Below are positions 39,858 to 54,526 of a stretch of DNA of 64,000 bases, one piece after another (positions within the stretch are counted from its first letter, which is position 1; every line of letters begins with the position of its first letter). A program made the position numbers and the translations under genes. Source of the stretch: Nitrospirota bacterium (lineage in GTDB: Bacteria; Nitrospirota; Thermodesulfovibrionia; Thermodesulfovibrionales; UBA9159); contig CAVOUE010000003.1 in the NCBI GenBank assembly GCA_963699545.1, positions 128,001 to 192,000 on the forward strand, given 5' to 3'. The notes below the pieces were generated by a model. That model did no database searches and was not told where the DNA came from. It saw only the letters and a program-made list of their open reading frames with translations.

Positions 39858-40214
39858 ATGTCGGAGAAGGTCAATTACAGGCAGCTCACCGAGGAAGAAG
39901 ACAGCATCTACAAGAGGAGCATCGGGGTCATCAGGTCGAATATCAGCAACGGGGTGAAGTTCGACCTCGCCTGCGAATTCATCACGGTGGATGACAGCGG
40001 ACTGAAGACCCTGATCATTGATGACGCCCTCAAAATAGAGATTGCAGAGATGCACTATGGAACAGGGCTCCCGCTCCTGGACGTGTCAAGAAAGCTCGGC
40101 GTTCCCGTAGAACGACTCTTAAAGGCAACTGCCGAGATGATGGAAGATGTGTTCCATACAGCCGATGAGGTCTCCCGGGAACAGTACGGAGACCCCGGTC
40201 CCCTTGCCCGCTGA
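39858..40214 (+). CDS. Hypothetical protein with possible C-terminal HTH
   Basis: GLPLLDVSRKLGVPVERL; first gene of the grx-FTR run. Confidence 0.7.
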   Translation: MSEKVNYRQLTEEEDSIYKRSIGVIRSNISNGVKFDLACEFITVDDSGLKTLIIDDALKIEIAEMHYGTGLPLLDVSRKLGVPVERLLKATAEMMEDVFHTADEVSREQYGDPGPLAR

Positions 40215-40221
40215 GGAGGAA

Positions 40222-40485
40222 ATGAAGCGAGTCACCCTCTTCTCCCTGAGCACCTGCGCCGCCTGCAAGAAAGTAAAGAAGTTCCTTGACGATCACACGA
40301 TCCCGCATACGATGATCGAGGTCGATACCCTGGACAGCGGAGAGCAGTGGCTCATGACAAAGGAACTCGCCAAACGCAACCCTCGGGGAACCTATCCCAC
40401 CCTTGTCATAGAGGACGTTATCGAAGGATATGACATCGGGGCCCTGGAGTCAAAGCTCTTGCCGGGAAAGCCCGAAGCATCATAA
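40222..40485 (+). CDS. Glutaredoxin-like protein
   Basis: STCAAC, TYPTLVI, IEGYD; GAGGAGG RBS. Confidence 0.88.
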   Translation: MKRVTLFSLSTCAACKKVKKFLDDHTIPHTMIEVDTLDSGEQWLMTKELAKRNPRGTYPTLVIEDVIEGYDIGALESKLLPGKPEAS

Positions 40486-40501
40486 CTGTCCGGGGGAACC
40501 A

Positions 40502-40828
40502 ATGACACCCGAAAAGCTCTATGAGGCCCTTATGCGCTATGCCGGATCTCAGGGCATGGAATTGTATAATGACCGGGATTTTGTATTGGATATTGTCCGC
40601 GGCCTTCTCAGGAACGAAGAACGTTACGGGTACCGGTCCTGTCCGTGCAGGCTCGCCACAGGCATCAAAGAACGTGACGAGGATATCATCTGTCCCTGCA
40701 GCTATAGGGATGATGATGTGAGGGAATACGGGAGCTGTTACTGTTCTCTCTATGTGTCAAGGGATTGGAACGAGGGGAAGATACCGCATGGAGTTGTGCC
40801 GGAGAGACGAGCCCAGAGGAGGGAATGA
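40502..40828 (+). CDS. Ferredoxin-thioredoxin reductase catalytic subunit-like protein
   Basis: CPC, CPC and CYC motifs. Confidence 0.92.
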   Translation: MTPEKLYEALMRYAGSQGMELYNDRDFVLDIVRGLLRNEERYGYRSCPCRLATGIKERDEDIICPCSYRDDDVREYGSCYCSLYVSRDWNEGKIPHGVVPERRAQRRE

Positions 40829-41223
40829 ACATGAGCGATGAAGAAAAATGTGATCTGAACATCTTTGATGTGCCGGGCCTCAATGACATCAGGCAGAGCC
40901 CCGACATCCTCGAAAAGATCAAATGGGAGGTGACGCCTCAGATGGTGATGGAACCGAGATTCCAGTTAGAGTCGGAAGGCCTGCGGAAACTCAGTGAGAT
41001 ATCCGGATATATGTTTTACATCGAGTCCCAGTGCAATCCCCCGGCGCTCATGCTTCTGAAGGTGGGGAAAACCGATATCGCTTCAACAGTAGGAAAGGTT
41101 GACGAGGTCCCTCAGGAGCTTATCAGAAAGGCGATGGAGAACCCTGTGGACAAACCGGCCAACGGGATGTACGCGATCACAGCCGAGATCAGGGAGTGGC
41201 TGAAAAAGGAGCTGGGGGTTTAG
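40825..41223 (+). CDS. Conserved hypothetical protein, resembles DVU0772-family proteins
   Basis: IKWEVTP...GMYAITAEIREWLKKEL; resemblance recalled, not searched. Confidence 0.55.
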   Translation: MNMSDEEKCDLNIFDVPGLNDIRQSPDILEKIKWEVTPQMVMEPRFQLESEGLRKLSEISGYMFYIESQCNPPALMLLKVGKTDIASTVGKVDEVPQELIRKAMENPVDKPANGMYAITAEIREWLKKELGV

Positions 41224-41987
41224 GCCTTCCGCTTCGCCTTCAGCGTCTCTTCCATCATCAGAATATATTTCACGAACTTGAAGCCGAAGAGCATGAGTTC
41301 GACATCATCGGTACGCATCTTCTCCCGTGACGCTTCATCCACCTCAAAGTTATCAAGGAACTTGCTATTGAATACGAACCTGCGGAACCGGTCCACATCA
41401 TAGTTTGCCATATAGAACATCGCCAGTTTCTTCCCCTCCAGCGCCATTTCCGGCATGTTCCTCATCAGGAGAATGCTCTTCCAGTCCCTGTTCAGCACAT
41501 CATACCGGTCGACGCCCTGGTCTTCCCTCCAGCCCGCCACCGTCCACTCCTGAGACTCTTCAAACCCCTTGCAGTGGTCTTCCCTGACAAAGAAGAAGAA
41601 TTCCTCATCCACCACTTTGTCATCCACCGCCTTTTTCAGCGTGCCCTGGCCGATGGGATAGTATCTGCAGTTGGCGGGCCTGTCCTCGTACACCGTGCAT
41701 CCCTCGGCGCTCACGAAGGGGCAGGTCCTTGTCTCATCAGCATTCATACGGAGATAGATCAGGGGAAAGGACGCCTTCCCATCGGTCTGTGTGTAGGTAT
41801 ATTTTTCGAGAAATTCCTCGGAGGGAATACCGAGCTTCTTCTTAAGGGCGACCACGTCATAGGGGGTGAGCATGATATCGATATTGCTGCAGCACTTCGT
41901 AAAACAGGAAATCCCCTTATGACATTTGAACCTGAACCTGCTCTTCAGGGTGAGCTGGACTTTGTCAACCGCCGCCATGTTCGCCAT
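41220..41987 (-). CDS. YkgJ-family cysteine-cluster protein
   Basis: CHKGISCFTKCC, CPF, CTVYEDRPANCRYYP. Confidence 0.88.
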   Translation of the reverse strand: MANMAAVDKVQLTLKSRFRFKCHKGISCFTKCCSNIDIMLTPYDVVALKKKLGIPSEEFLEKYTYTQTDGKASFPLIYLRMNADETRTCPFVSAEGCTVYEDRPANCRYYPIGQGTLKKAVDDKVVDEEFFFFVREDHCKGFEESQEWTVAGWREDQGVDRYDVLNRDWKSILLMRNMPEMALEGKKLAMFYMANYDVDRFRRFVFNSKFLDNFEVDEASREKMRTDDVELMLFGFKFVKYILMMEETLKAKRKA

Positions 41988-42154
41988 ACAAACCTCCACA
42001 TTCTTGCTTATCTATTATAATCACCGCTTCGGAGAAAATGCTATTCATGAGGGCAAGGGGCCACCGGTAATGGGCGATACGGAAACATCCGGGCGGTATT
42101 TGTAGTCCCATTGCCTCTTGCCAATAGCTATTGCCGGATTTGAATCTGAAAAAC

Positions 42155-42201: not shown

Positions 42202-44278
42202 CTATATTAACGGCACGATAAGAAGCGCTACGATGTTGATGACCTTGATCATAGGGTTGATCGCCGGGCCCGCTGTGTCTTTGTAAGGGTCTCCGACGGT
42301 ATCGCCTGTTACAGAGGCCTTATGCCCATCGCTCCCCTTCTTATGAACTTTCCCTTTGTCGTCGGTAACGCCCTCTTCAAAGGATTTCTTGGCGTTGTCC
42401 CATGCTCCGCCGCCGCTTGTCATGGCGATAGCCTGGAAGAGTCCGGTCAGGATACTACCGATAAGGACTCCACCGAGGGCTTCCCTGCCGAGGAGAAGAC
42501 CTACTGCGATAGGAACTACCACCGGGATAAGGGCAGGGACCATCATCTGCTTGATAGCGCCTTTTGTGACGATGTCAACGCACTTGCCGTATTCCGGCTT
42601 TGCCTTATATTCCATAATTCCGGGGATCTCCCTGAACTGTCTTCTGACCTCCTCAACAATACTGCCGGCTGCCTTTCCAACCGCCTCCATAAGGAGTGAG
42701 CCGTAATAATAAGGGAGAAGACCGCCGATGAAAAGACCTGCCAGGACCATCGGGTTTGAAAGGTCAAATTTCAGCGCGGTCGGGAAAGACCTTGAATACT
42801 CGGCAAAAAGGACCAGCGCTGCAAGACCTGCTGAGCCGATCGCATAACCCTTTGTAACAGCCTTTGTCGTATTTCCGACTGCATCCAATGGGTCTGTGAT
42901 GTTACGGATCTCTGCAGGCAGTCCCGACATTTCCGCTATACCGCCTGCGTTGTCAGTAATCGGACCGTATGAGTCGATCGCAACAACGATGCCTGTCATT
43001 GAAAGCATGGAAACCGCTGACAGGGCGATAGCAAAAAGACCGCCTGCTGCATCACCGGCGAATCCGCCGCCCAAAGCATATGCGCCGAGGATTGAGGCAA
43101 CAATAACTATAACAGGCGCGGCGGTTGACTTCATGCTGACCGCGAGACCGGCGATCACGTTTGTTCCGTGACCGGTCAGACTGGCCTTTGCAATGTGTTT
43201 CACCGGGGGATACTGCGAAGCAGTGAAGTACTCAGTTATAACCACGATCAGTCCGGTCAATGCAAGGCCGATAACCGCCATAAGGAAAACGTTCATTTGA
43301 GTAAATGACGCATGAGCAACCAATGAAGCCTGCGCTGAAGCGCCCTTCAGGAACTCGCCTGTCACAAAATAAAATACTATTGCCGCAAGCACGCCTGCAA
43401 CGGCAAGCCCCTTATAGAGGGCCCCCATGATGTACTGGCTTTTACCGAGCCTTACTGCAAAGGTTCCGATAATGGATGCGATGATCGATATTCCGCCGAG
43501 GAGCATCGGAAACTCAATCCAGTCGCTACCTACGCCAAAAACCGTCTTTGCCAAGAGCATTGCTGCAACAAGTGTAACCGTGTATGTTTCATAAAGGTCA
43601 GCTGCCATACCTGCGCAGTCCCCTACATTGTCTCCTACGTTATCTGCGATAACAGCAGGGTTTCTGGGATCGTCCTCGGGGATTCCCGCTTCAACTTTTC
43701 CAACGAGGTCAGCGCCTACGTCAGCAGCCTTTGTGTAGATACCGCCTGCGATACGGGCAAACACGCTCATAAGTGAGCATCCGAAGCCGAGGCCTACCAA
43801 GGCATGGAATACCATCTCAGGATTTGCTGCCTTTGCAATCGTATAAAAGCCTGCAAGGCCTATAATTCCAAGACCAACAACCATAACGCCGGTAACCGAG
43901 CCGCCCTTGAACGCAAGACTGAGCGCAGCCTGGAGAACCTCTGTGCGCGGCCTGTGTAGTGCGGACGTTAGCGCGGACAGTAACCCACATACCCACAAAG
44001 CCGGCAAGCGCAGAACCGAACGTGCCGACAATAAAGCCAATAGCGGTCCAAATGCCGAGATTCATCGCCGCGATAAGAACGACAAGGACCACTGCAACCA
44101 TCGCAACTGTCTTATATTCGCGTGCCAGGAACGCATATGCGCCCTCTTTGACCGCATTCGAGATCTCCTGCATCTTTGCACTGCCGGCGTCCTGCTTCGA
44201 TACCCACATTGCGGTCATAATTGCGTATATGACACCTAGTACACCGCAACCTAAGGCAAACAATATCGTTAGACTCAT
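42202..44278 (-). CDS. hppA: Membrane-bound ion-pumping pyrophosphatase, K+-independent signature (frameshift ~43945)
   Basis: [36 protein letters not shown]. Confidence 0.95.
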
Positions 44279-44874: not shown

Positions 44875-46014
44875 CTACTCTCTTCCCGCCTGCTTCGCAA
44901 ACACCATGGCGGTAGCACGGTATACCATATGGGCCATCTTCGAAAAGGGCGCATATGCAAAGAGGAAGAAAACGAACACGAGGTGGATGAAATACGTAGG
45001 ATACGCCAGAGCAGCGATGTCCGCAAGCCTGAAGAGCTCCGAGAGTATGCCTGTGGCCATGATGGCGAAGACCACCAGGATGAAGAGCCAGTCATAATAA
45101 CTCCCGGCACCCGCTTTTTCCTTGTTCTTGAGCCGGTTGGTGATCACCAGCATAGTGCCGGCCAGGAGCGCAAGTGCGCTCACATTTCCGACAATCTTGA
45201 GCGGATCGTAGAGCGGAAAGGGCGAGTCCCCGAAGTGAAAAATGGAGAACGCCTCGATACCGAAGATCTTGTGCCCGTAGAGGTAAACAACCGCCCAGCT
45301 TGTTGTTATGGCAAGGCCGATGAAGGCATAGAAAACCAGGAGATGGGAGGTTGATCGGGCCATGGTCACATTGCACTTCTTGAACCTGCTGTGGGAGAGG
45401 ATATCTGCAATGACCCCCTTGAAACTCCCCATGATATCTCCCCTGACCTTCGCCCCTTCGCTCATGGCTGCCCAGTATTTCTTCACGCCGAGGACGAAGG
45501 AAACGACCGCAAAGATCGCCGCGGCAGTAAAGATCGGATCGACAAAATGGATGGGGATGAACTTTGAGTACACGATCTTCCCCTCGGGGAACGACGAAAG
45601 CTGGCCCTCATAGCCGGCAACACCGAGGAAAATGAGCACCGGCAGCGCAAAGAGGAGGATCAGGTACTTCGAGTCGCTCACCATATTGGCAAGGAACGAA
45701 GGCGCGGAAAATTCCCTTATGGTCATCTTTCGTATCGCACCGAGGACCTCACCCGGCTTGGCACCCCGGGGACAGTATGCGGTACAGTCACTGCACTGAT
45801 GACAGAGCCAGATGTCCGGGTTGCTGATGAGCCTGTCCTTCAGACCCCATTGCGCATACATCATCTCTTTCCGGGGAAAAGGTTTGCTGTCCGGGGTGAC
45901 ATTGCAGACCACCGAACAGGTGGCACACTGGAAACACTTTTTCAGCGATTCTCCCCCGCTGTTCATAACCTCTTTTACAAAATTCAAATCCGGGCTTATT
46001 GCCTGTTCTGCCAT
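44875..46014 (-). CDS. qmoC: Quinone-interacting membrane oxidoreductase subunit C
   Basis: CFQCATCSVVC, CHQCSDCTAYCP, TM region, SKMAHM. Confidence 0.93.
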   Translation of the reverse strand: MAEQAISPDLNFVKEVMNSGGESLKKCFQCATCSVVCNVTPDSKPFPRKEMMYAQWGLKDRLISNPDIWLCHQCSDCTAYCPRGAKPGEVLGAIRKMTIREFSAPSFLANMVSDSKYLILLFALPVLIFLGVAGYEGQLSSFPEGKIVYSKFIPIHFVDPIFTAAAIFAVVSFVLGVKKYWAAMSEGAKVRGDIMGSFKGVIADILSHSRFKKCNVTMARSTSHLLVFYAFIGLAITTSWAVVYLYGHKIFGIEAFSIFHFGDSPFPLYDPLKIVGNVSALALLAGTMLVITNRLKNKEKAGAGSYYDWLFILVVFAIMATGILSELFRLADIAALAYPTYFIHLVFVFFLFAYAPFSKMAHMVYRATAMVFAKQAGRE

Positions 46015-46142: not shown

Positions 46143-48374
46143 TTAAAATTCCTTAAACGGATTAGGCCCTATTTCTTTGACCTTTGCGACAAACTCGTTG
46201 ATCATGTCGGGGAGTTTGTCATACTCATTGATCGCGACCTGCATCATCTGGACCCTTTCGGACTCAAGTTGGAGCCTGTTCAGTGTCTCTCCGATCTTGC
46301 TGAACCGGTAGTTTGCAAGCTCACTGCCCTTCACAAAGTGACACTGATAGTTTTCTCCGTATTTACAGCCGAGGAGCAGCACCCCGTCAACGCCTTTGGA
46401 GAGGGCGTCTGCAACCCACACGAGGTTCATGCCCCCGAGGCATCTCAGCGAAATAAACCTGACACTCGCATCGATCTCTTTACGGTTAATACCTGCGGTA
46501 TCAAGCGCCGGATATGCGTCGTTTTCGCAGGCAAGGCAGATGATCCTGAACTCCTCCTCGGGACAATCAAGCGACTTAATCATGGAGCCGATGATGTCAA
46601 CGCTGTAATCTTTAAATTGCACAATTCTTTCCGGACATGCGCCCATACAGGTCCCGCACCGTCTGCACCGGTTCAACTTATAAAAGGGTATACCCTTCTC
46701 GTCTTCTTCAATGGCCCCAAAGGGACATTCTTCCGTACACCTTTTGCACGCGGTACACCTGATGAGCATCGGGTCGGGGAACGTGATGTCCCAGGCCCTC
46801 GGATGGACGGCCATTCCTCTTGAGGCGTGATCGACGCATTGTATCGCCTTAAAGGCCGCGCCCGCCGCATCTTCCTGCGCTTCGGACATATTCATGGGCT
46901 GCCTCACACAGCCCGCAGCGTAGACACCGGTCCTCCTCGTTTCATACTGAAAGCAGATGAAGTTCGAATCCGCAAACCCGCACGCACCTTCAAGTGAAGG
47001 GAGCTCCGGGCCCTGCCTGTAAGCGAGGTTCAGGATATATTCCGGCTTCGGTGTTGTCTCAAGATATGCCTTCTTGGCGTCATCACCCTTTGCAGCTTCC
47101 AGGGCGAGATTATCGAGATATTCCTGTGGCGCCCTCGTCGTCGGGACCATGCCCGTTGCAAGAACGACCAGATCGGCCTCAACCGTCACCTTTTCGCCAA
47201 GAAGCGAATTCTCCATCTCGACAAGGAGGTTGCCGTTTCCGACCTCGGTAACGCCGGTAACATCGGCTTTCGTGAGCATGACGCCCGGATCGTTCTGGGC
47301 CTCCATGTAATATGATTCGAGCCTCCCCGGTGTTCTTATATCAATATAGAAGATCATTGCAAGCGCATCGGGGTTCTGCCTCACATACTTTGCCTGTTTC
47401 AGCGATGTCGCGCAGCACATGGACGAGCAATAGGGAAGATGATTCGGGTTCCTCTGCCCTGCACATTGAATAAAGGCCACCTTCCTCGCCTCTTTACCGT
47501 TGGAGGGCTTTATGATCTTTCCGTTGTTCTTCTTTGCGATTTCCTCGAATTCTATGTTTGTCACCACGTCTTTGGATTTCCCGTATCCGAGGTAATCAAG
47601 CTTTGTGGCGTCATAGGGCTTCCAGCCTGTGGCCATGACAATTGCGCCGATCTTTACGGTCTCGGAGTTGCCGTTTGACGCTATCGTCACGTCATACAGA
47701 CCCGGCTGACCTTCTGTCTTCTCAACCTTTGCGGACTTATAGACCTTAATATCCGGATTGCTTTCCACTTCTTTGATAAGCGCATCTGCGTCGGTATCCA
47801 CTATGAGGGGCTCTCTGAAAAACACCCCCATCGGAATTTTCTTGTAGAGTTTATTCATAAAGCCGCCGAGCTGGGGCTCCTTTTCCACAAGGACGACCTT
47901 CTGCCCCGCCTTTGCCGCCTCAATAGCTGCTGTCATGCCGCTTATGCCGCCGCCGATGACCAGGATTGTACTGCTCAGGTTCTCAAGGATGTTCGGCTCC
48001 GGCAGATCCCCTTTCTGCGTCTTGACGATACCCATGATAAGATAGTCCGCCGCAATGGTCTGGGTCTCATCGGTCTTCGGAGGCTTGCTCCAGGCGACGA
48101 ATTCCCTCATATTCACTCTCTCGGTAATAGTTCCGGAAAAGGAAAACTCATCATACTTCACACGCGGAGAGCAGGCCGCTATGATGATCGTGTTCACTCC
48201 GTCCTTGATATCGTCCTTGATCAACTGGACTCCGGCGGGACCGCATAAGATATCGTGGGTCTTGCAGTTAGCGATCTTCATGTCCTTTGTGGCCACATTC
48301 GAGAGCTTCTCTATGTCAATGGCATCGCCAATGCCGCAGCCTTTGCAGATATATACGCCGAATTTCTTCTCCAT
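46143..48374 (-). CDS. qmoB: QmoB (HdrA-like with MvhD-like domain)
   Basis: GGGISG, YCSSMCC, two ferredoxin motifs, CENDAYPA. Confidence 0.93.
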   Translation of the reverse strand: MEKKFGVYICKGCGIGDAIDIEKLSNVATKDMKIANCKTHDILCGPAGVQLIKDDIKDGVNTIIIAACSPRVKYDEFSFSGTITERVNMREFVAWSKPPKTDETQTIAADYLIMGIVKTQKGDLPEPNILENLSSTILVIGGGISGMTAAIEAAKAGQKVVLVEKEPQLGGFMNKLYKKIPMGVFFREPLIVDTDADALIKEVESNPDIKVYKSAKVEKTEGQPGLYDVTIASNGNSETVKIGAIVMATGWKPYDATKLDYLGYGKSKDVVTNIEFEEIAKKNNGKIIKPSNGKEARKVAFIQCAGQRNPNHLPYCSSMCCATSLKQAKYVRQNPDALAMIFYIDIRTPGRLESYYMEAQNDPGVMLTKADVTGVTEVGNGNLLVEMENSLLGEKVTVEADLVVLATGMVPTTRAPQEYLDNLALEAAKGDDAKKAYLETTPKPEYILNLAYRQGPELPSLEGACGFADSNFICFQYETRRTGVYAAGCVRQPMNMSEAQEDAAGAAFKAIQCVDHASRGMAVHPRAWDITFPDPMLIRCTACKRCTEECPFGAIEEDEKGIPFYKLNRCRRCGTCMGACPERIVQFKDYSVDIIGSMIKSLDCPEEEFRIICLACENDAYPALDTAGINRKEIDASVRFISLRCLGGMNLVWVADALSKGVDGVLLLGCKYGENYQCHFVKGSELANYRFSKIGETLNRLQLESERVQMMQVAINEYDKLPDMINEFVAKVKEIGPNPFKEF

Positions 48375-48376
48375 CG

Positions 48377-49639
48377 CTATTTCCTCCTCAAACTCTGCAT
48401 GCTCTTGATCGCAACACCCGTGGCGTCCTGAACAGACCGAACAACATCAGCAGGACTCTTCAGTGTCCCCACGGCATATATGCCTTTTTTCGCGCTGCCA
48501 GCGTCCACAAACCCATCAGGCGTATAAGAGATATCCTTGACGATTTTCGAGTCCTTTGTGCCGGGGACCATACCTGCGGCAAGGACCACCATATCAAAGG
48601 TCGCCTTGATCTTCTTGCCGCCCAGAATATCTTCTACCTCAACGATGACATCCTTCGTAGCAGGGTCTTCGGTAATCCCCGCAACCTTGCCCTTTGTTAG
48701 GGTGACATTGGGATCGTCCTTCACCTTCCACAGGAATCTGTTCTCATAAAGCCCGGGAGTCCTAAGGTCGATGTAAAATATCTGCGCCTTTGAATCCGGG
48801 TATTGTTCCCTGATATACATGGTCTGCTTCAGTGAAGCAAGGCAGCATATATACGAACAGTAGGGAAGATGGTTCTCGTCCCTCGATCCCGCGCACTGGA
48901 CAAAGGCGATGTTCTTCACCTCTTTGCCGTCAGACGGACGGACGATTTTGCCGCCCGTAGGCCCGTTCGCCGCAGCCAGCCTCTCCATCATCATGTTCGT
49001 GATCACATTCTGGACTTTTCCAAAGCCCGAGGTTGTCCATTCTGGTGGCATCGTACAGGTTCCATCCTGTAGCCATAACAATGGCGCCGACCTTGAGGCT
49101 TACTGTTTCCGTCTTCATATTCAGGTCAATGGCGTCGTATTTGCAGGCGTCAAAACACGCCTTCATGCAGTCTTTTGCGCAGGCTGAATCGTCGATCACA
49201 TATGTGAAGGGAAATGCCTGATTAAAAGGGAAGATACGCTGCCTTCGTCTTGTCCATTCCGAAATTAAAATCATTACTGCGATATGACGGACATGCTTGC
49301 GCACAGGCATCGCAGCCCACGCACTTGTCATTTACGTACCTCGGATTGACCTTCACGGTCACATCGAAAGTTGCCCTCTTCTCCCTTGATTTCCTGCACC
49401 TCGGCCAGCGTATAGAATTTAATCTGTCCGCTGTTCTTTATCCTCTTGAACTGTATCTCAAGGCCACACACTGGCGGGCATAGTTTCCAGAAGTACTTAT
49501 TCAACTGCGCCACCTTGCCGCCAAGATAGGGGTTCTTCTCGACGATAACAACGTCGTTACCGGCCTCAGCGATTTCCACTGCTGCAGTGAGACCGCTGAA
49601 ACCTCCTCCGATTATTAAAGCTGTTTTATTCTCTGCCAT
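48377..49639 (-). CDS. qmoA: QmoA (HdrA-like; frameshifted)
   Basis: [30 protein letters not shown] across three ORFs. Confidence 0.9.
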
Positions 49640-49797: not shown

Positions 49798-51801
49798 TTA
49801 CTTATACATCTCGACATAGGGAACCTTCTTGAATTCCCATTTGTTGGTCGCGCTGTCGTACTTCGAATTGGTGAAGCACTTCCAGTTTGTGTCATCGATC
49901 TTGTTAAAGTCGCCCCTGTAGTAGTACCCGGGGTACCTGGACTCCTCCCTGAAGAGGATATGCCTTGCATGCGCCTCGACCGACAGAATTCTGTGGTAGT
50001 TCTCGAAGCACCTTAAGAGCTCGTGGAGGTCTTTTGCCGCCATCTTTGCGGCATCCTCTTTGAGCATCTCAAGCTTCTTGAGGCCTTCTTCAAGCATCGT
50101 CTTTGAGGTCATGTACCAGGTGGCAACCCCACCGAAGTACTCGTCGGAAATCTTCTGGAGTCTCAGCTGAAGCGATTTCGGACCGATGTAATTGGGGTTG
50201 ATCGTGGGATCCGTCGAATAGGTCTTGTATTTCTCATACATCTCGAACGGCAGATAGAGCTCGGCCGCAATCTCATCAAGGGACAATTTCGGTGACGGCT
50301 TGTAGTCTGCGTGGTCGAGGATGAATGCCAACGCGCCCTTTGCTGCGATCCTGCCCTCTGCATGGGAACCGGATGAGAATTTGTGGCCTGAGGCGCCGAC
50401 AACGTCACCAGCCATGAAGAGACCGGGTACGGTAGACATCCTGTTGTATCCCCAACTGTAATGTGCGGGTGTGCCGGCAATATCGCCGGGGCCGCTCACC
50501 CAGAATCCTGCGCAGCCTGCGTGTGAACCCAAGAGATAGGGCTCTGTCGGCATAATTTCGGATGTACTCTTATCCGGCTCAATATTACTTGCCGCCCACA
50601 GGGACGCCTGTCCGATAGCCATGTCAAGGAAGTCTTCCCATGCCTCTGCCTCGAGGTGTTTCATCTTCTTGGCGCCTTCTTTATCGCCAAGTTTCTCTTT
50701 GAAGCCTTTCCCCAGGGCCTCCATAGCCGCAGGGGTCTGCATGAGGATCGGGCCCCTGCCGTCCCTCATGGCCCTCATCATAAGATGGTTCCTGATCGCC
50801 GTACCGAGACCTTTTGCATAGTCTCCGTATCTGGCAACCGCATCATCAAAATATTCCTTGTCCGCGCAGTAGTCGTTCCCGAAGCTGTCTGTTGCCTTTG
50901 CCTTAAAGAACAGGAACCATGCGCCGACAGGACCATATCCGTCCTTAAATCTTGCGGGCACGAACCTGTTCTCCATCAGGGTCAGCTCGGCGCCGGCCTG
51001 CATGCCGAACGCATACCCCGAACCGCAGCTGAATACCGGGTACCAGGTCCTTCCCATACCTTCACCAACCGACCTCGGTCTGAAGCAGTTAACTGCTCCC
51101 GCAGTCGCACAGATCATCGCCTTTGCTTTAAAGGAGTAAATCTTGTTTTCCCTCACGCTGAACCCGATGGCCGCTGCCACGTTTTTCCCATTGGTATCCA
51201 TTACCGCCTTCACAATGAATACCCTTTCAAAATGGTTCTGCGCCATACCGGTTTTTTCCCTGTTGACCTGAAGGGCCTTCTTCGCAGCCTCTGCAACGAC
51301 AACCTTATAGGACTCGCCATTGATCATGATCTGCCATTTGCCGGACCTTACCGGTGTTCCGCCGTCCTTCAGGCTCGCCTTACCGGCATCTTTTGCCTGG
51401 AAGCCATCGAGTGAGAACCCGTCATCGCCCTTCTTCCAGATGGGGAGACCCCATTCTTCAAAGAGCTGGACCGAATCGTCAACGTGCCTGCCGAGGTCAA
51501 ACACAAGGTCTTCCCTGATGATACCCATCAGGTCGTTTCTCACGTATTTAACATAATCAGCAACCTTGTTCTCACCAACATAGGTGTTAATGGCGGACAG
51601 GCCCATTGCGACTGCGCCGCTTCTGTCTGTTGCAGCCTTGTCAACCAGGACAACCTTAAGTCCCTTTTCATTTGCCCAGCGGCATGCTTCGAACGCAGCG
51701 CCGCACCCTGCCATACCGCCGCCCATGATCAGGAGATCGGTTTCAACTTCAGTTACTTCAGGCTTCGCACAAAATGAAAATGTACAAGTTTCTTTTTCCA
51801 T
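49798..51801 (-). CDS. aprA: Adenylylsulfate reductase alpha subunit
   Basis: RSGAVAMGLSAINTY, WQIMINGESY, HKFSSGSH. Confidence 0.97.
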   Translation of the reverse strand: MEKETCTFSFCAKPEVTEVETDLLIMGGGMAGCGAAFEACRWANEKGLKVVLVDKAATDRSGAVAMGLSAINTYVGENKVADYVKYVRNDLMGIIREDLVFDLGRHVDDSVQLFEEWGLPIWKKGDDGFSLDGFQAKDAGKASLKDGGTPVRSGKWQIMINGESYKVVVAEAAKKALQVNREKTGMAQNHFERVFIVKAVMDTNGKNVAAAIGFSVRENKIYSFKAKAMICATAGAVNCFRPRSVGEGMGRTWYPVFSCGSGYAFGMQAGAELTLMENRFVPARFKDGYGPVGAWFLFFKAKATDSFGNDYCADKEYFDDAVARYGDYAKGLGTAIRNHLMMRAMRDGRGPILMQTPAAMEALGKGFKEKLGDKEGAKKMKHLEAEAWEDFLDMAIGQASLWAASNIEPDKSTSEIMPTEPYLLGSHAGCAGFWVSGPGDIAGTPAHYSWGYNRMSTVPGLFMAGDVVGASGHKFSSGSHAEGRIAAKGALAFILDHADYKPSPKLSLDEIAAELYLPFEMYEKYKTYSTDPTINPNYIGPKSLQLRLQKISDEYFGGVATWYMTSKTMLEEGLKKLEMLKEDAAKMAAKDLHELLRCFENYHRILSVEAHARHILFREESRYPGYYYRGDFNKIDDTNWKCFTNSKYDSATNKWEFKKVPYVEMYK

Positions 51802-51814
51802 GTATATTCACCTC

Positions 51815-52234
51815 CTATTCATTTCTTGCCGGGCCGGTAAAGAAACCAGGCTTCTTAAGTGTCGCAAAATCAGGCGCCGGTTTCCCTGCATACGGATCAA
51901 CCGAACCCTCTGCTGTTGTCCTGATGGGGAACTTGAACCTCTTGAGGACCCCGTTCCTGAACTTGATCGTCCACATAATGGAGTCGGTGCCTCTCAAGGG
52001 GATAGTGCTGGACCCGAGGGGAACGAAGTCTGAATAACCCCTGACCTCGATCGCCTGCTGCGGGCAGATCTTGACACAGTTAAAGCACTCCCAGCACTGC
52101 TCAGGCTCCTGATTGTATGCCTTCATCTTTTCTCTGTTGAGGGCCATCAAATCATGAGGACAGATATACTGGCATGCGGTCTTATCCTGGGCCTTACATC
52201 CATCACATTTCTCGGTAATCACAAAACTTGGCAT
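51815..52234 (-). CDS. aprB: Adenylylsulfate reductase beta subunit
   Basis: CDGC, CWECFNCVKICP, KRFKFPIRTT. Confidence 0.97.
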   Translation of the reverse strand: MPSFVITEKCDGCKAQDKTACQYICPHDLMALNREKMKAYNQEPEQCWECFNCVKICPQQAIEVRGYSDFVPLGSSTIPLRGTDSIMWTIKFRNGVLKRFKFPIRTTAEGSVDPYAGKPAPDFATLKKPGFFTGPARNE

Positions 52235-52379
52235 GTTCCTTAACCTCCTTTACGGTTTCTCAATATCAGCCTTAGCACCTAAGGCAGTAATCCAAAACTT
52301 TCCGATGAGCTAAATCTCCACCTCCTCTCACTTCTGAATATTTGTGTACCTTTATCTCGGCCTTTAATACGACATGAAT

Positions 52380-53579
52380 CTATTTATCAAGACTCTGATA
52401 ATACTTAATCAGAATTTCCGCCACCTCAGGACGTGAGAATTCTTTCGGCGGCGCAATACCCTTCCCTAACATTTCACGGACTTTTGTACCCGAAAGCAGA
52501 ACGAAATCTTCTTTTGTATGATCAGGCGCTTCACACATCATCACGACCTTGTTCAGTTTCTTCGAGTATGCAGTATGGTCTGCCTTGAAGATTTCGATTT
52601 TCAGCGCACCGGCAGGTACTTCATCGTCGAAGATTTTTTGCGCATCAAATGCACCGTAGTGATCACCCACACCCGCATGGTCACGACCAACAATGAAGTG
52701 AGTTGCGCCCATGTTTTGACGGAATATAGCGTGCAATACACCTTCCCGTGGTCCGGCATACAGCATATCGAAACCGTAACCAGTAATCATTGCACTGTTT
52801 TTTGGGAAGTACAGCTCAACCATTTTACGGATCGCAGCATCACGAACAGGTGCCGGGATATCTCCTTTTTTCAATTTACCAAGTAACATGTGAATAACCA
52901 GACCATCACAACCTAAACGCTTCATTGCCATGTGACAAAGTTCTTCGTGGGCCAGATGCATCGGGTTACGGGTCTGGAAAGCAACAACCTTACTCCAGCC
53001 GCGCTCAGTGATTTCGTTGCGAATTTCGACTGCTGTGCGGAACGTGTCCGGGAATTCATCCTGGAAGTAAGAGAAGTTTAATACTTTAATTGGACCTGAC
53101 AGACAAACTTTACCCTGAGCGTTGAATGCTTCAACACCTGGATGTGCTTCCCCAGCCCTGGGCCGGTAAACTTTTTCAGACATCAGCGCCATCTCTGCAT
53201 CGCTGAATTCTTCAACCGCGACAACATCCATAACTGCAAGGATTGGATTGCCTTCAACGTTCGGATCTTTCAGTGCAATGCGATTACCCGCCTTGATTGA
53301 GCCTGCATTGTTAACCAGGTTTAAAATCGGAGTAGGCCAGAACAAACCGGATGTTGTTTTCATATTTTTCGCAACAGACAGCGCATCAGCTTTATTCATG
53401 TAGCCTGTCAATGGATTGAAGTAACCGCCACCCAGCATAACTGCATTCGCTGCAGTAGCTGAGCTCACAACAATAGAAGCCAGACCTTCAGCTTCTTTCT
53501 GCAGGGTTTCATTCTCAGTCGTGTCATACACGAATAGTGGATTCAGTTTGTCTGAACCATGTGGTTTAATTAATGCCAT
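52380..53579 (-). CDS. sat: Sulfate adenylyltransferase (ATP sulfurylase)
   Basis: AFQTRNPMHLAH, YAGPREG, GRDHAG, SGTKVR. Confidence 0.97.
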   Translation of the reverse strand: MALIKPHGSDKLNPLFVYDTTENETLQKEAEGLASIVVSSATAANAVMLGGGYFNPLTGYMNKADALSVAKNMKTTSGLFWPTPILNLVNNAGSIKAGNRIALKDPNVEGNPILAVMDVVAVEEFSDAEMALMSEKVYRPRAGEAHPGVEAFNAQGKVCLSGPIKVLNFSYFQDEFPDTFRTAVEIRNEITERGWSKVVAFQTRNPMHLAHEELCHMAMKRLGCDGLVIHMLLGKLKKGDIPAPVRDAAIRKMVELYFPKNSAMITGYGFDMLYAGPREGVLHAIFRQNMGATHFIVGRDHAGVGDHYGAFDAQKIFDDEVPAGALKIEIFKADHTAYSKKLNKVVMMCEAPDHTKEDFVLLSGTKVREMLGKGIAPPKEFSRPEVAEILIKYYQSLDK

Positions 53580-53878
53580 TTTCCCCTCCTGTTAAGGTAT
53601 TTTTTGTAGGGCAATGCTGAACCCTTAATCCACAATGACCTTTTGCCTGATCCGCGCTTCCGGGCTCCATGAAGCCGCCTAAGAACGTTTTTTCAGAGAC
53701 CGTTCACGCGATGATGTTCGAAAGAGCACTATAAATTAATCGATGTCGGGATTTAATGCAATTTTAAAATTATAATTCAAAGATTAGTTTTCCTTATAAA
53801 AATTGACGAGGGACGGAAAAAGTCGACGGCAGGAGCCCAAGCCCCCGCCGTCGGACGGGAAAAACGCAATACCGCAGG

Positions 53879-54526
53879 CTATTTCAATCCCAGGGAATTA
53901 CAAACCGCCTTAAAGATATCATCGATGCTTCCTGTTCCGCTGACAGAACTTAATATCCCCTTCTTCTTGTAGTAATCGAAGAGAGGCGCCGTTTGTGAGC
54001 TGTACACATCGAGCCGCTTCTTGATCGTCTCTTCCTTGTCGTCATCCCTTTGGAATAATGCCCCCCCGCATTTATCACAGGTCCCCTCCTTCTTCGGAGA
54101 GTTGAAGTAGACGTTATACATCTGGCCACAGCCCTTGCAGGTCCTTCTGCCGGTAAGCCTCTTCATGAGGTCGTCAAGGGGAACATCAACGCTTAATGCG
54201 GCGGTCAGGGGCATCTTCAGCGTGTCAAGCATCGCATCCAGGGCTTCGGCCTGGGCCGTGTTCCTCGGGAAACCATCAAGGATATATCCTTTTTTGCAGT
54301 CATCCTGTTTCAGCCTCTCCCCGACCATACCAAGCACCACCCTGTCGGGAACAAGCTCCCCCTTGTCCATAAAAGATTTCGCCTCTTTGCCGAGGGAAGT
54401 TCCGGCCGCAACTGCTGCCCGCAGAAGGTCGCCGGTGGAGATTTGAGGAATTCCGTATTTTTCGATAAGTTTTTTCGCCTGAGTCCCCTTACCGGCACCT
54501 GGTGCGCCAAGTAGTACAAGTCTCAT
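53879..54526 (-). CDS. adk: Adenylate kinase (Zn-lid type)
   Basis: GAPGAGKGTQ, LDGFPR, CxxC...CxxC. Confidence 0.97.
   Translation of the reverse strand: MRLVLLGAPGAGKGTQAKKLIEKYGIPQISTGDLLRAAVAAGTSLGKEAKSFMDKGELVPDRVVLGMVGERLKQDDCKKGYILDGFPRNTAQAEALDAMLDTLKMPLTAALSVDVPLDDLMKRLTGRRTCKGCGQMYNVYFNSPKKEGTCDKCGGALFQRDDDKEETIKKRLDVYSSQTAPLFDYYKKKGILSSVSGTGSIDDIFKAVCNSLGLK

Follow-up and report, generated by a model that had tools for sequence, protein, structure and literature searches.

Does the ATP sulfurylase gene (sat) in a sulfate-reduction operon of a Nitrospirota bacterium belong to its host, or has it been exchanged in place for the gene of a sulfur oxidizer? In the window, by which we mean the entire 64,000-nucleotide stretch of DNA that was analyzed, genome G000 carries the order rdgB–adk–sat–aprB–aprA–qmoABC–CBS–hppA (Table 1). 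The initial annotation had proposed that an oxidizer-type enzyme replaced the resident one here. Our main reading, to which we assign a probability of roughly three in four, is that the native sat was swapped in place for an oxidizer-type sat whose clade is now found in at least 77 of 390 genomes of the class Thermodesulfovibrionia, and that this gene probably entered the class once and was then re-inserted many times across families. Two genes of the operon, qmoA and hppA, are frame-broken in the window and intact in relatives, probably as a result of long-read indels. A stretch adjoining the operon (39858–41999) encodes a glutaredoxin, a ferredoxin-thioredoxin reductase beta chain, two unnamed ORFs and a CxxCxxCC protein whose relatives also lie 3' of aprBA in Thiothrix and alphaproteobacterial loci. 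A promoter scan at the sat locus returned no sigma-70 site.

Table 1. Features of the sat locus and its operon, with positions numbered within the window
Feature	Position	Strand	Basis
Foreign sat (ATP sulfurylase, gammaproteobacterial sulfur-oxidizer type), 399 aa, without zinc motif	52380..53579	-	Codon use, structure relatives, TIGR00339, trees
sat RNP loop and HxxH motif, residues 202-211; MHLAH variant as in donor clade, both histidines retained	52947..52976	-	
14-nt trailer 3' of the foreign sat stop; probably the donor-side end of the inserted segment	52366..52379	-	
Relic of native sat 3' end, reading as the K-E-IK-HKY-E tail of native Sats	52331..52365	-	
Host-type spacer and ribosome-binding region upstream of aprB	52235..52330	-	Matches same-family native-allele genomes
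adk-sat spacer	53580..53878	-	Matches only host-family genomes
Terminator-like hairpin within adk-sat spacer	53824-53853		
adk, host-type	53879..54526	-	95% to congener G001; sister on tree
aprB, host-type	51815..52234	-	92% to G001
aprA, host-type	49798..51801	-	94% to G001; sister on tree, SH-aLRT 84
qmoA, split over several frames in the assembly; likely sequencing indels	48377..49639	-	
qmoB	46143..48374	-	
qmoC, membrane subunit, reducer-type QmoABC	44875..46014	-	
hppA, membrane pyrophosphatase, in two frames	42202..44278	-	

The protein encoded by sat is a Sat-type ATP sulfurylase (TIGR00339, 395.6 bits against a cut-off of 322.95) with PF14306 (PUA-like) and PF01747 (ATP-sulfurylase) domains, and it is the only Sat match found in a genome that is 87% complete. 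The initial annotation had described sat as more AT-rich than aprA and as using CGT/CGC, TTA and GGT codons where aprA favors AGG, and full counts bear out each of these points. The GC content is 0.460 for sat and 0.530 for aprA, with GC3 values of 0.43 and 0.65. Arginine is encoded by CGT or CGC in 12 of 15 positions in sat against 1 of 28 in aprA, and by AGG in 1 of 15 against 20 of 28; TTA accounts for 6 of 33 leucines against 1 of 45, and GGT for 22 of 32 glycines against 18 of 65. In a ranking of 1517 long ORFs from the genome, sat falls at the 2.2 percentile for GC3s (0.40, with a median of 0.63) and at the 1.8 percentile for codon fit, so that the codon statistics proposed as a check also mark it as atypical. 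Its CGY share of 0.80 is the joint highest of 1468 ORFs with at least 10 arginines, and shares of 0.79–1.0 are found across all foreign sat loci examined.

The relatives of the enzyme point to the same source. Its closest solved structures are those of the Riftia symbiont (1jhd, 655 bits) and Allochromatium vinosum (4dnx, 630 bits), with the next at 213 bits, and the four peptides that had been likened to the Riftia-symbiont type are all present in the translation. The most similar proteins (90–95% identity) are, where named, from Nitrospirae or Thermodesulfovibrionia, and it is from these labels that we take the name of the class; Thiothrix and other Gammaproteobacteria follow at 82–89% (best 80 of 586 matches). 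In a tree rooted with 6 of the 40 native and third-type Sats, 59 Sats from the class form a single clade (SH-aLRT 99) nested within a gammaproteobacterial clade defined by MHLAH (98), and a smaller, more careful tree recovers both the enclosing clade (97/88) and the class clade (92/85). Approximately unbiased (AU) tests reject a Sat clade of the host family f1 (p 2e-22) as well as a single clade of all class Sats (p 0.016). The Sat, AprA and adk trees were computed under LG+G4; AprA sequences shorter than 550 aa and adk products shorter than 190 aa were excluded, and titled Nitrospirota loci L001–L015, L017–L020, L037 and L051 were omitted as duplicates. These results show that sat of G000 is foreign and of gammaproteobacterial sulfur-oxidizer type.

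All four motifs named by Parey et al. (2013, PMC3779200), RNP, HxxH, GxxKxxD and GRD, are present in the G000 enzyme. The initial annotation had remarked that the usual MHRAH reads MHLAH; the reading itself is correct, but the variant is not peculiar to this gene, being found in 59/59 foreign Sats of the class and 54/59 proteobacterial Sats, with native Sats reading MHRSH. We therefore reject MHLAH as an adaptation to the host and regard it as inherited from the donor. The zinc motif CxxC-x8/9-CxH occurs in 35/35 native and 5/5 third-type Sats and in none of 59 foreign or 59 proteobacterial Sats, and these motif counts show that it was lost with the swap. The IVYWREL fraction is 0.347 in foreign Sats and 0.375 in native ones.

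What the locus held before is apparent from the congener G001, where the same slot reads rdgB–adk–native sat–aprB–aprA and the Sat is only 45% identical to that of G000. By contrast with Sat, the neighboring products of the two genomes are 92–95% identical, and the two are sisters on both the adk tree (95) and the aprA tree (84), so that separate Sat and AprA phylogenies, as the initial annotation had suggested comparing, place the two genes of one operon in different lineages. The downstream spacer is up to 97% identical over 104 nt to native-allele genomes of the same family, and a block of the adk–sat spacer (53718–53801) is 93% identical to a native-allele genome, with matches within the host family only. 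Since both spacers match only or mainly genomes of the host family, the swapped piece amounts to approximately the reading frame plus 14 bases; the first bases of this trailer recur 3' of the stop codon in other carriers. Beyond the foreign stop and trailer, bases 52365–52331 match the last codons of native sat in the G000/G001 alignment. This 35-bp relic, whose best match is a native sat of the host family (91% over 35 nt), sets the direction of the exchange as native to foreign.

The exchange was therefore of a single gene, with the host adk, both spacers and aprBA retained, and apart from the relic the native copy is gone from G000 (87% complete). In the donor-clade gammaproteobacterial loci L026, L043, L044, L047, L048 and L056, adk and hppA also lie near sat; they are only 47–62% identical to those of the host, which indicates that they did not travel with sat. 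The nesting of Sat and its AU test, the native allele in the slot of the congener and the remnant of the old gene together give strong support to an in situ xenologous replacement between adk and aprB, as had been claimed.

Scars of this kind are found at other foreign loci. A protein profile of 35 native tails detects a relic above all 100 shuffles in 12 of the 59 foreign loci, and DNA alignment detects one in 21 of 59, against 0 of 59 proteobacterial control loci, leaving 38 of 59 foreign loci with no relic. No relic of the 5' end of native sat was found in the 59 foreign loci. Relic offsets vary from +1 to +64, relic ends fit the carrier lineage's own native tail in genus g38 and families f22 and f2, and in 7 of the 14 cases listed, G000 among them, the best native DNA match belongs to the family of the carrier. 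The varied offsets and lineage-matched ends point to several separate events, although some of the junction differences could be later deletions.

The distribution of the foreign clade extends well beyond the single genome considered in the initial annotation, which identified the foreign sat of G000 and missed its class-wide and probably repeated occurrence. At ≥86% identity it is found in at least 77 of 390 class genomes, or approximately one fifth, from families f1, f2, f6, f11, f12, f18, f19 and f22; 329 of the 390 have any Sat match, and 205 weaker matches were unlisted. In a sample of 401 genomes from the phylum, all 26 strong matches lie inside the class. Of the foreign loci, which number at least 77, we examined 59, together with 35 native ones; this selection was set by available coordinates rather than random. 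Both alleles occur within six genera, verified by sequence (g1, g31, g38, g44, g48 and g163), and within two more by score. We conclude that the replacement is genuine, that its limits are sharp, that it left a scar and that it is found class-wide.

Silent-site divergence indicates how the gene moved within the class. Divergence at fourfold sites falls below 0.35 in 191 of 1303 cross-family foreign pairs and in 0 of 300 native pairs, and its minimum across families is 0.20 for foreign sat, even across orders, as compared with 0.49 for native sat; adk is saturated. The dS between sat of G000 and that of a genome of family f11 is 0.32, whereas adk and aprA differ from those of its own congener by 0.59 and 0.49. 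Foreign sat has a dN/dS of 0.05–0.10 and is under purifying selection. For the same 51 genomes, the sat tree requires 20 changes of family label and the adk tree 9 (28.9 in shuffles). Because silent divergence is unsaturated across families, repeated spread within the class is the most likely history suggested by these sequences. Set against this, family clades survive AU tests on the foreign-sat DNA tree (p 0.76, 0.37 and 0.18), for which the tree search was quick and poor. Families f22 and f18 branch basally, which is a hint only. In searches for a vector, viral contigs held no relative of foreign sat, and the best plasmid matches were below 60%.

Other Sat types are found in the class as well. 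A second oxidizer-type Sat (L175 and L176; 73–74% identity, MHRAH) occurs in G045 and G049, in the latter before aprBA, and joining it to the main foreign clade is rejected (AU p 0.031). The AprA of G049 is sister to that of the native-Sat genome G047, and G049 has a second Sat match. A third Sat type, 28–32% identical, with a differing HxxH context and the zinc motif, fills the adk–aprB slot in five fetched genomes of four families (L204, L205, L214, L215 and L216). In G005, G006 and G026 this third type accompanies one AprA clade, indicating that sat–aprBA can move as a block. The aprA tree also contains a shallow clade of 19 AprA sequences over families f1, f2, f6, f11 and f22, of which 18 lie behind foreign sat, and this suggests that a block of foreign sat and f1-type aprBA spreads too. 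Across the aprA tree, Sat type does not track AprA type.

We also compared the sulfur metabolism of the hosts. The main dsr cluster of G000 contains dsrAB, a DsrD-like gene, dsrN, dsrC, a dsrT-like gene and dsrMKJOP, followed 3' by dsrH-, dsrE- and dsrF-like genes and then tusA; napA and a cbb3-like oxidase (checked by family scan) are also encoded. Its dsrA is 95% identical to that of the native-allele congener, and this identity, along with the gene order, leads us to type the G000 dsr genes as reductive-looking. The DsrD-like gene 3' of dsrB scores 22.8 bits against a Pfam cut-off of 24.2, and such a gene is found by tblastn at each of the 30 dsrA loci fetched; the Pfam search itself returned no match in 80 genomes or in controls and is uninformative. 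No oxidative-type dsrA was seen (TIGR03012, 0 of 80 genomes), no DsrL was recognized in the ORF lists of both G000 dsr clusters, and soxB was not above cut-off in five genomes. In the dsr typing that the initial annotation had called for, carriers keep a host-type dsrA. G000 was also considered as a canonical rDsr sulfur oxidizer and rejected on its host-type dsrA, DsrD-like gene and dsrT-like gene. A second, divergent dsrAB pair is present in G000 (G000:C4:38370-40647; L112 and L115), its DsrA being 33% identical to the main copy and below the dsrA cut-off; among 80 genomes, similar second copies occur only in G011, G317 and G117, three of the four genomes that carry narG, and in G317 both copies lie on one contig.

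For trait comparison we used 40 carriers and 40 native-allele genomes, hand-picked from the same families. The two groups do not differ in napA (15 carriers and 10 native, p 0.33), narG (2 and 2), YeeE (39 and 40) or canonical dsrE (0 and 0), and neither heme-copper oxidase (34 and 31) nor DsrF-like genes (40 and 34) track the allele. A cbb3-like oxidase, its class read from score bands of 319–366 bits, is found in 23 carriers and 12 native-allele genomes (p 0.024, post hoc), and this trend vanishes in six independent pairs (1.4 and 0.3, median p 1). The DsrEFH-like and tusA relay genes have been proposed as a marker of sulfur-oxidation capacity in sulfate reducers (PMC13293266, in its available portion). 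Because they are common in both groups, the background appears to allow reversal and the allele is no marker for it. The suggested relevance of the swap to reversed flux or disproportionation is neither demonstrated nor refuted by this comparison, in which dsrA type did not differ either. PF04143 (YeeE/TsuA-family) matches with two in-frame TGA codons, possibly a selenoprotein form, occur in G011, G074, G075, G076, G080, G081, G082, G084, G085, G086, G112, G113, G114 and G115.

Two other histories of the locus would make repeated replacement unnecessary. The junctions could be a product of chimeric assembly, which the initial annotation had named as a refutation, or of misbinning; there are indel-like breaks nearby in qmoA and hppA, the assembly has 5% contamination, and the source reads were not found (best word share 0.14). 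However, aprB is adjacent to sat in 58 of 59 foreign loci and adk lies upstream in 51, which argues against a chimera; sat sits inside a 903-kb contig; and a contig of an independent run covering 52330–52707 crosses both the stop codon and the relic, although no single contig of that run spans the entire stretch. For the arrangement as such, we regard an artifact as refuted. It is also conceivable that one ancient replacement occurred in an ancestor of several families and that the native allele later returned, as the single foreign clade and the failure of AU tests to reject family monophyly would allow. This version is largely refuted, and we consider it very improbable: cross-family and cross-order silent divergence is unsaturated while adk is saturated, relics match their own lineages at differing junctions, and sat is closer in dS to other families than adk and aprA are to the congener. 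Repeated replacement would instead begin with a single likely entry of a gammaproteobacterial sat into the class, followed by re-insertion between families rather than directly from Gammaproteobacteria. Flanking homology would have anchored the recombination, and a short join would lie just beyond the foreign stop; the swap in G000 probably postdates the split from G001.

Why the gene spread is less certain, and of three possible reasons we place first, tentatively and at somewhat less than even odds, selection through faster ATP-forming catalysis, which is the weakest step of the explanation. The foreign Sat may produce ATP and sulfate faster from APS and pyrophosphate, which would benefit reductive-Dsr bacteria during the oxidation or disproportionation of sulfur compounds with nitrate or trace oxygen; being the sole Sat found, it would serve sulfate reduction too. 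In the available text of Parey et al. (PMC3779200), A. vinosum Sat has 433 U/mg in ATP synthesis and 72 in molybdolysis, and oxidizer Sats are described as adapted to ATP synthesis, while the metabolic classes of ATP sulfurylase are described as not separable on structure. The same text ties the zinc site to thermophiles and stability, and zinc independence or cold performance could be what was selected: it would be a cheaper form of an abundantly made enzyme, used for ordinary sulfate reduction where habitats are sulfidic, temperate and poor in zinc. The absence of the zinc motif from every foreign Sat, the lower IVYWREL fraction and the retention by carriers of host-type dsrA with no oxidative marker all favor this, but native alleles persist within the same genera and the literature yielded nothing specific on zinc, and we rank it second, as unlikely though worth keeping in view. 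Near-neutral shuffling, in which adk–sat–aprBA is a recombination hot spot into which any working Sat may drift, ranks third and seems less probable again. It would account for the third Sat type in the slot, for aprA alleles that cross families and for the lack of any trait associated with the allele. On the other hand, a 45%-identical gene cannot recombine freely along its length and yet has been fixed with many junctions, a second oxidizer-type Sat entered separately, and all relics point from native to foreign, although this last asymmetry is weak evidence because a reverse relic would not be detectable likewise.

As a type of event xenologous displacement is known already, and the sat case in Thermodesulfovibrionia appears to be undescribed. 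Displacement of genes in situ within mosaic operons was reportedly recognized by Omelchenko and colleagues in 2003. As in such operons, one gene has been replaced by a distant orthologue with gene order retained; unlike them, the present case is probably repeated across families and orders and carries a dated relic of the displaced gene. Xenologous replacement of aprBA and dsrAB among bacteria of the sulfur cycle is described in the accessible portion of Watanabe et al. (2016, PMC5099947), and dsrAB transfer within Nitrospirae in that of Zecchin et al. (2018, PMC5812927); in these, as here, core sulfur-pathway genes were exchanged across lineages. The aprBA and dsrAB cases they cover ran mostly from reducers to oxidizers or among reducers, whereas here one oxidizer gene entered a reducer operon, probably many times and with scars. 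The enzyme shares its RNP, HxxH, GxxKxxD and GRD motifs and its lack of a zinc motif with the Sats of 'Ca. Endoriftia persephone' (PDB 1JHD) and A. vinosum (PDB 4DNX; PMC3779200), but differs from them in reading HLAH instead of HRAH and in belonging to a host that has QmoABC and a dsrABD of reductive appearance. It is 82–89% identical to the Sats of Thiothrix, Cocleimonas and uncultured Gammaproteobacteria, with which it shares MHLAH, CGT/CGC use and the enclosing clade of both trees.

In its reductive-looking Dsr, DsrEFH-like and tusA genes and napA, G000 resembles the reductive-Dsr oxidizers and disproportionators Desulfurivibrio, cable bacteria and Dissulfurispira, whose Sat is treated in the available portions of PMC13293266, PMC13047784 and PMC12998232 as part of a vertically inherited pathway. 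DiSCo, as far as its accessible text goes, records both reducer- and oxidizer-type proteins across Nitrospira genomes without detail. No report of this sat swap was found in the open literature, outside which subscription papers fall, including the accessible portions of PMC10504309, PMC8477390, PMC13047784, PMC13657043, PMC11033732, PMC5099947, PMC10591310, PMC12998232, PMC5812927, PMC13293266 and PMC11406059; the supplements seen carry untyped Sat labels, and other supplementary figures and tables could contain typed Sat hits.

For bacteria with a reductive Dsr, it is still an open problem to separate sulfate reducers from oxidizers and disproportionators on genomic grounds, and the class Thermodesulfovibrionia is abundant in aquifers, wetlands and sediments. 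A core energy gene here appears to be spreading over families and orders with fossil junctions. Surveys will class sat reads from these organisms as gammaproteobacterial and oxidative, which is a warning for their use. In six or more genera, operons that are nearly identical apart from their Sat type offer matched enzyme pairs for examining kinetic direction, zinc need and temperature. The boldest interpretation, which we consider rather unlikely, is that one oxidizer-derived allele is sweeping the class through dozens of scarred swaps because many members run Sat–Apr–Qmo in the ATP-yielding direction. If this were true, the net direction of flux in reductive-Dsr genomes could be read from Sat type, and the congeneric pairs would serve as a natural experiment in pathway reversibility.
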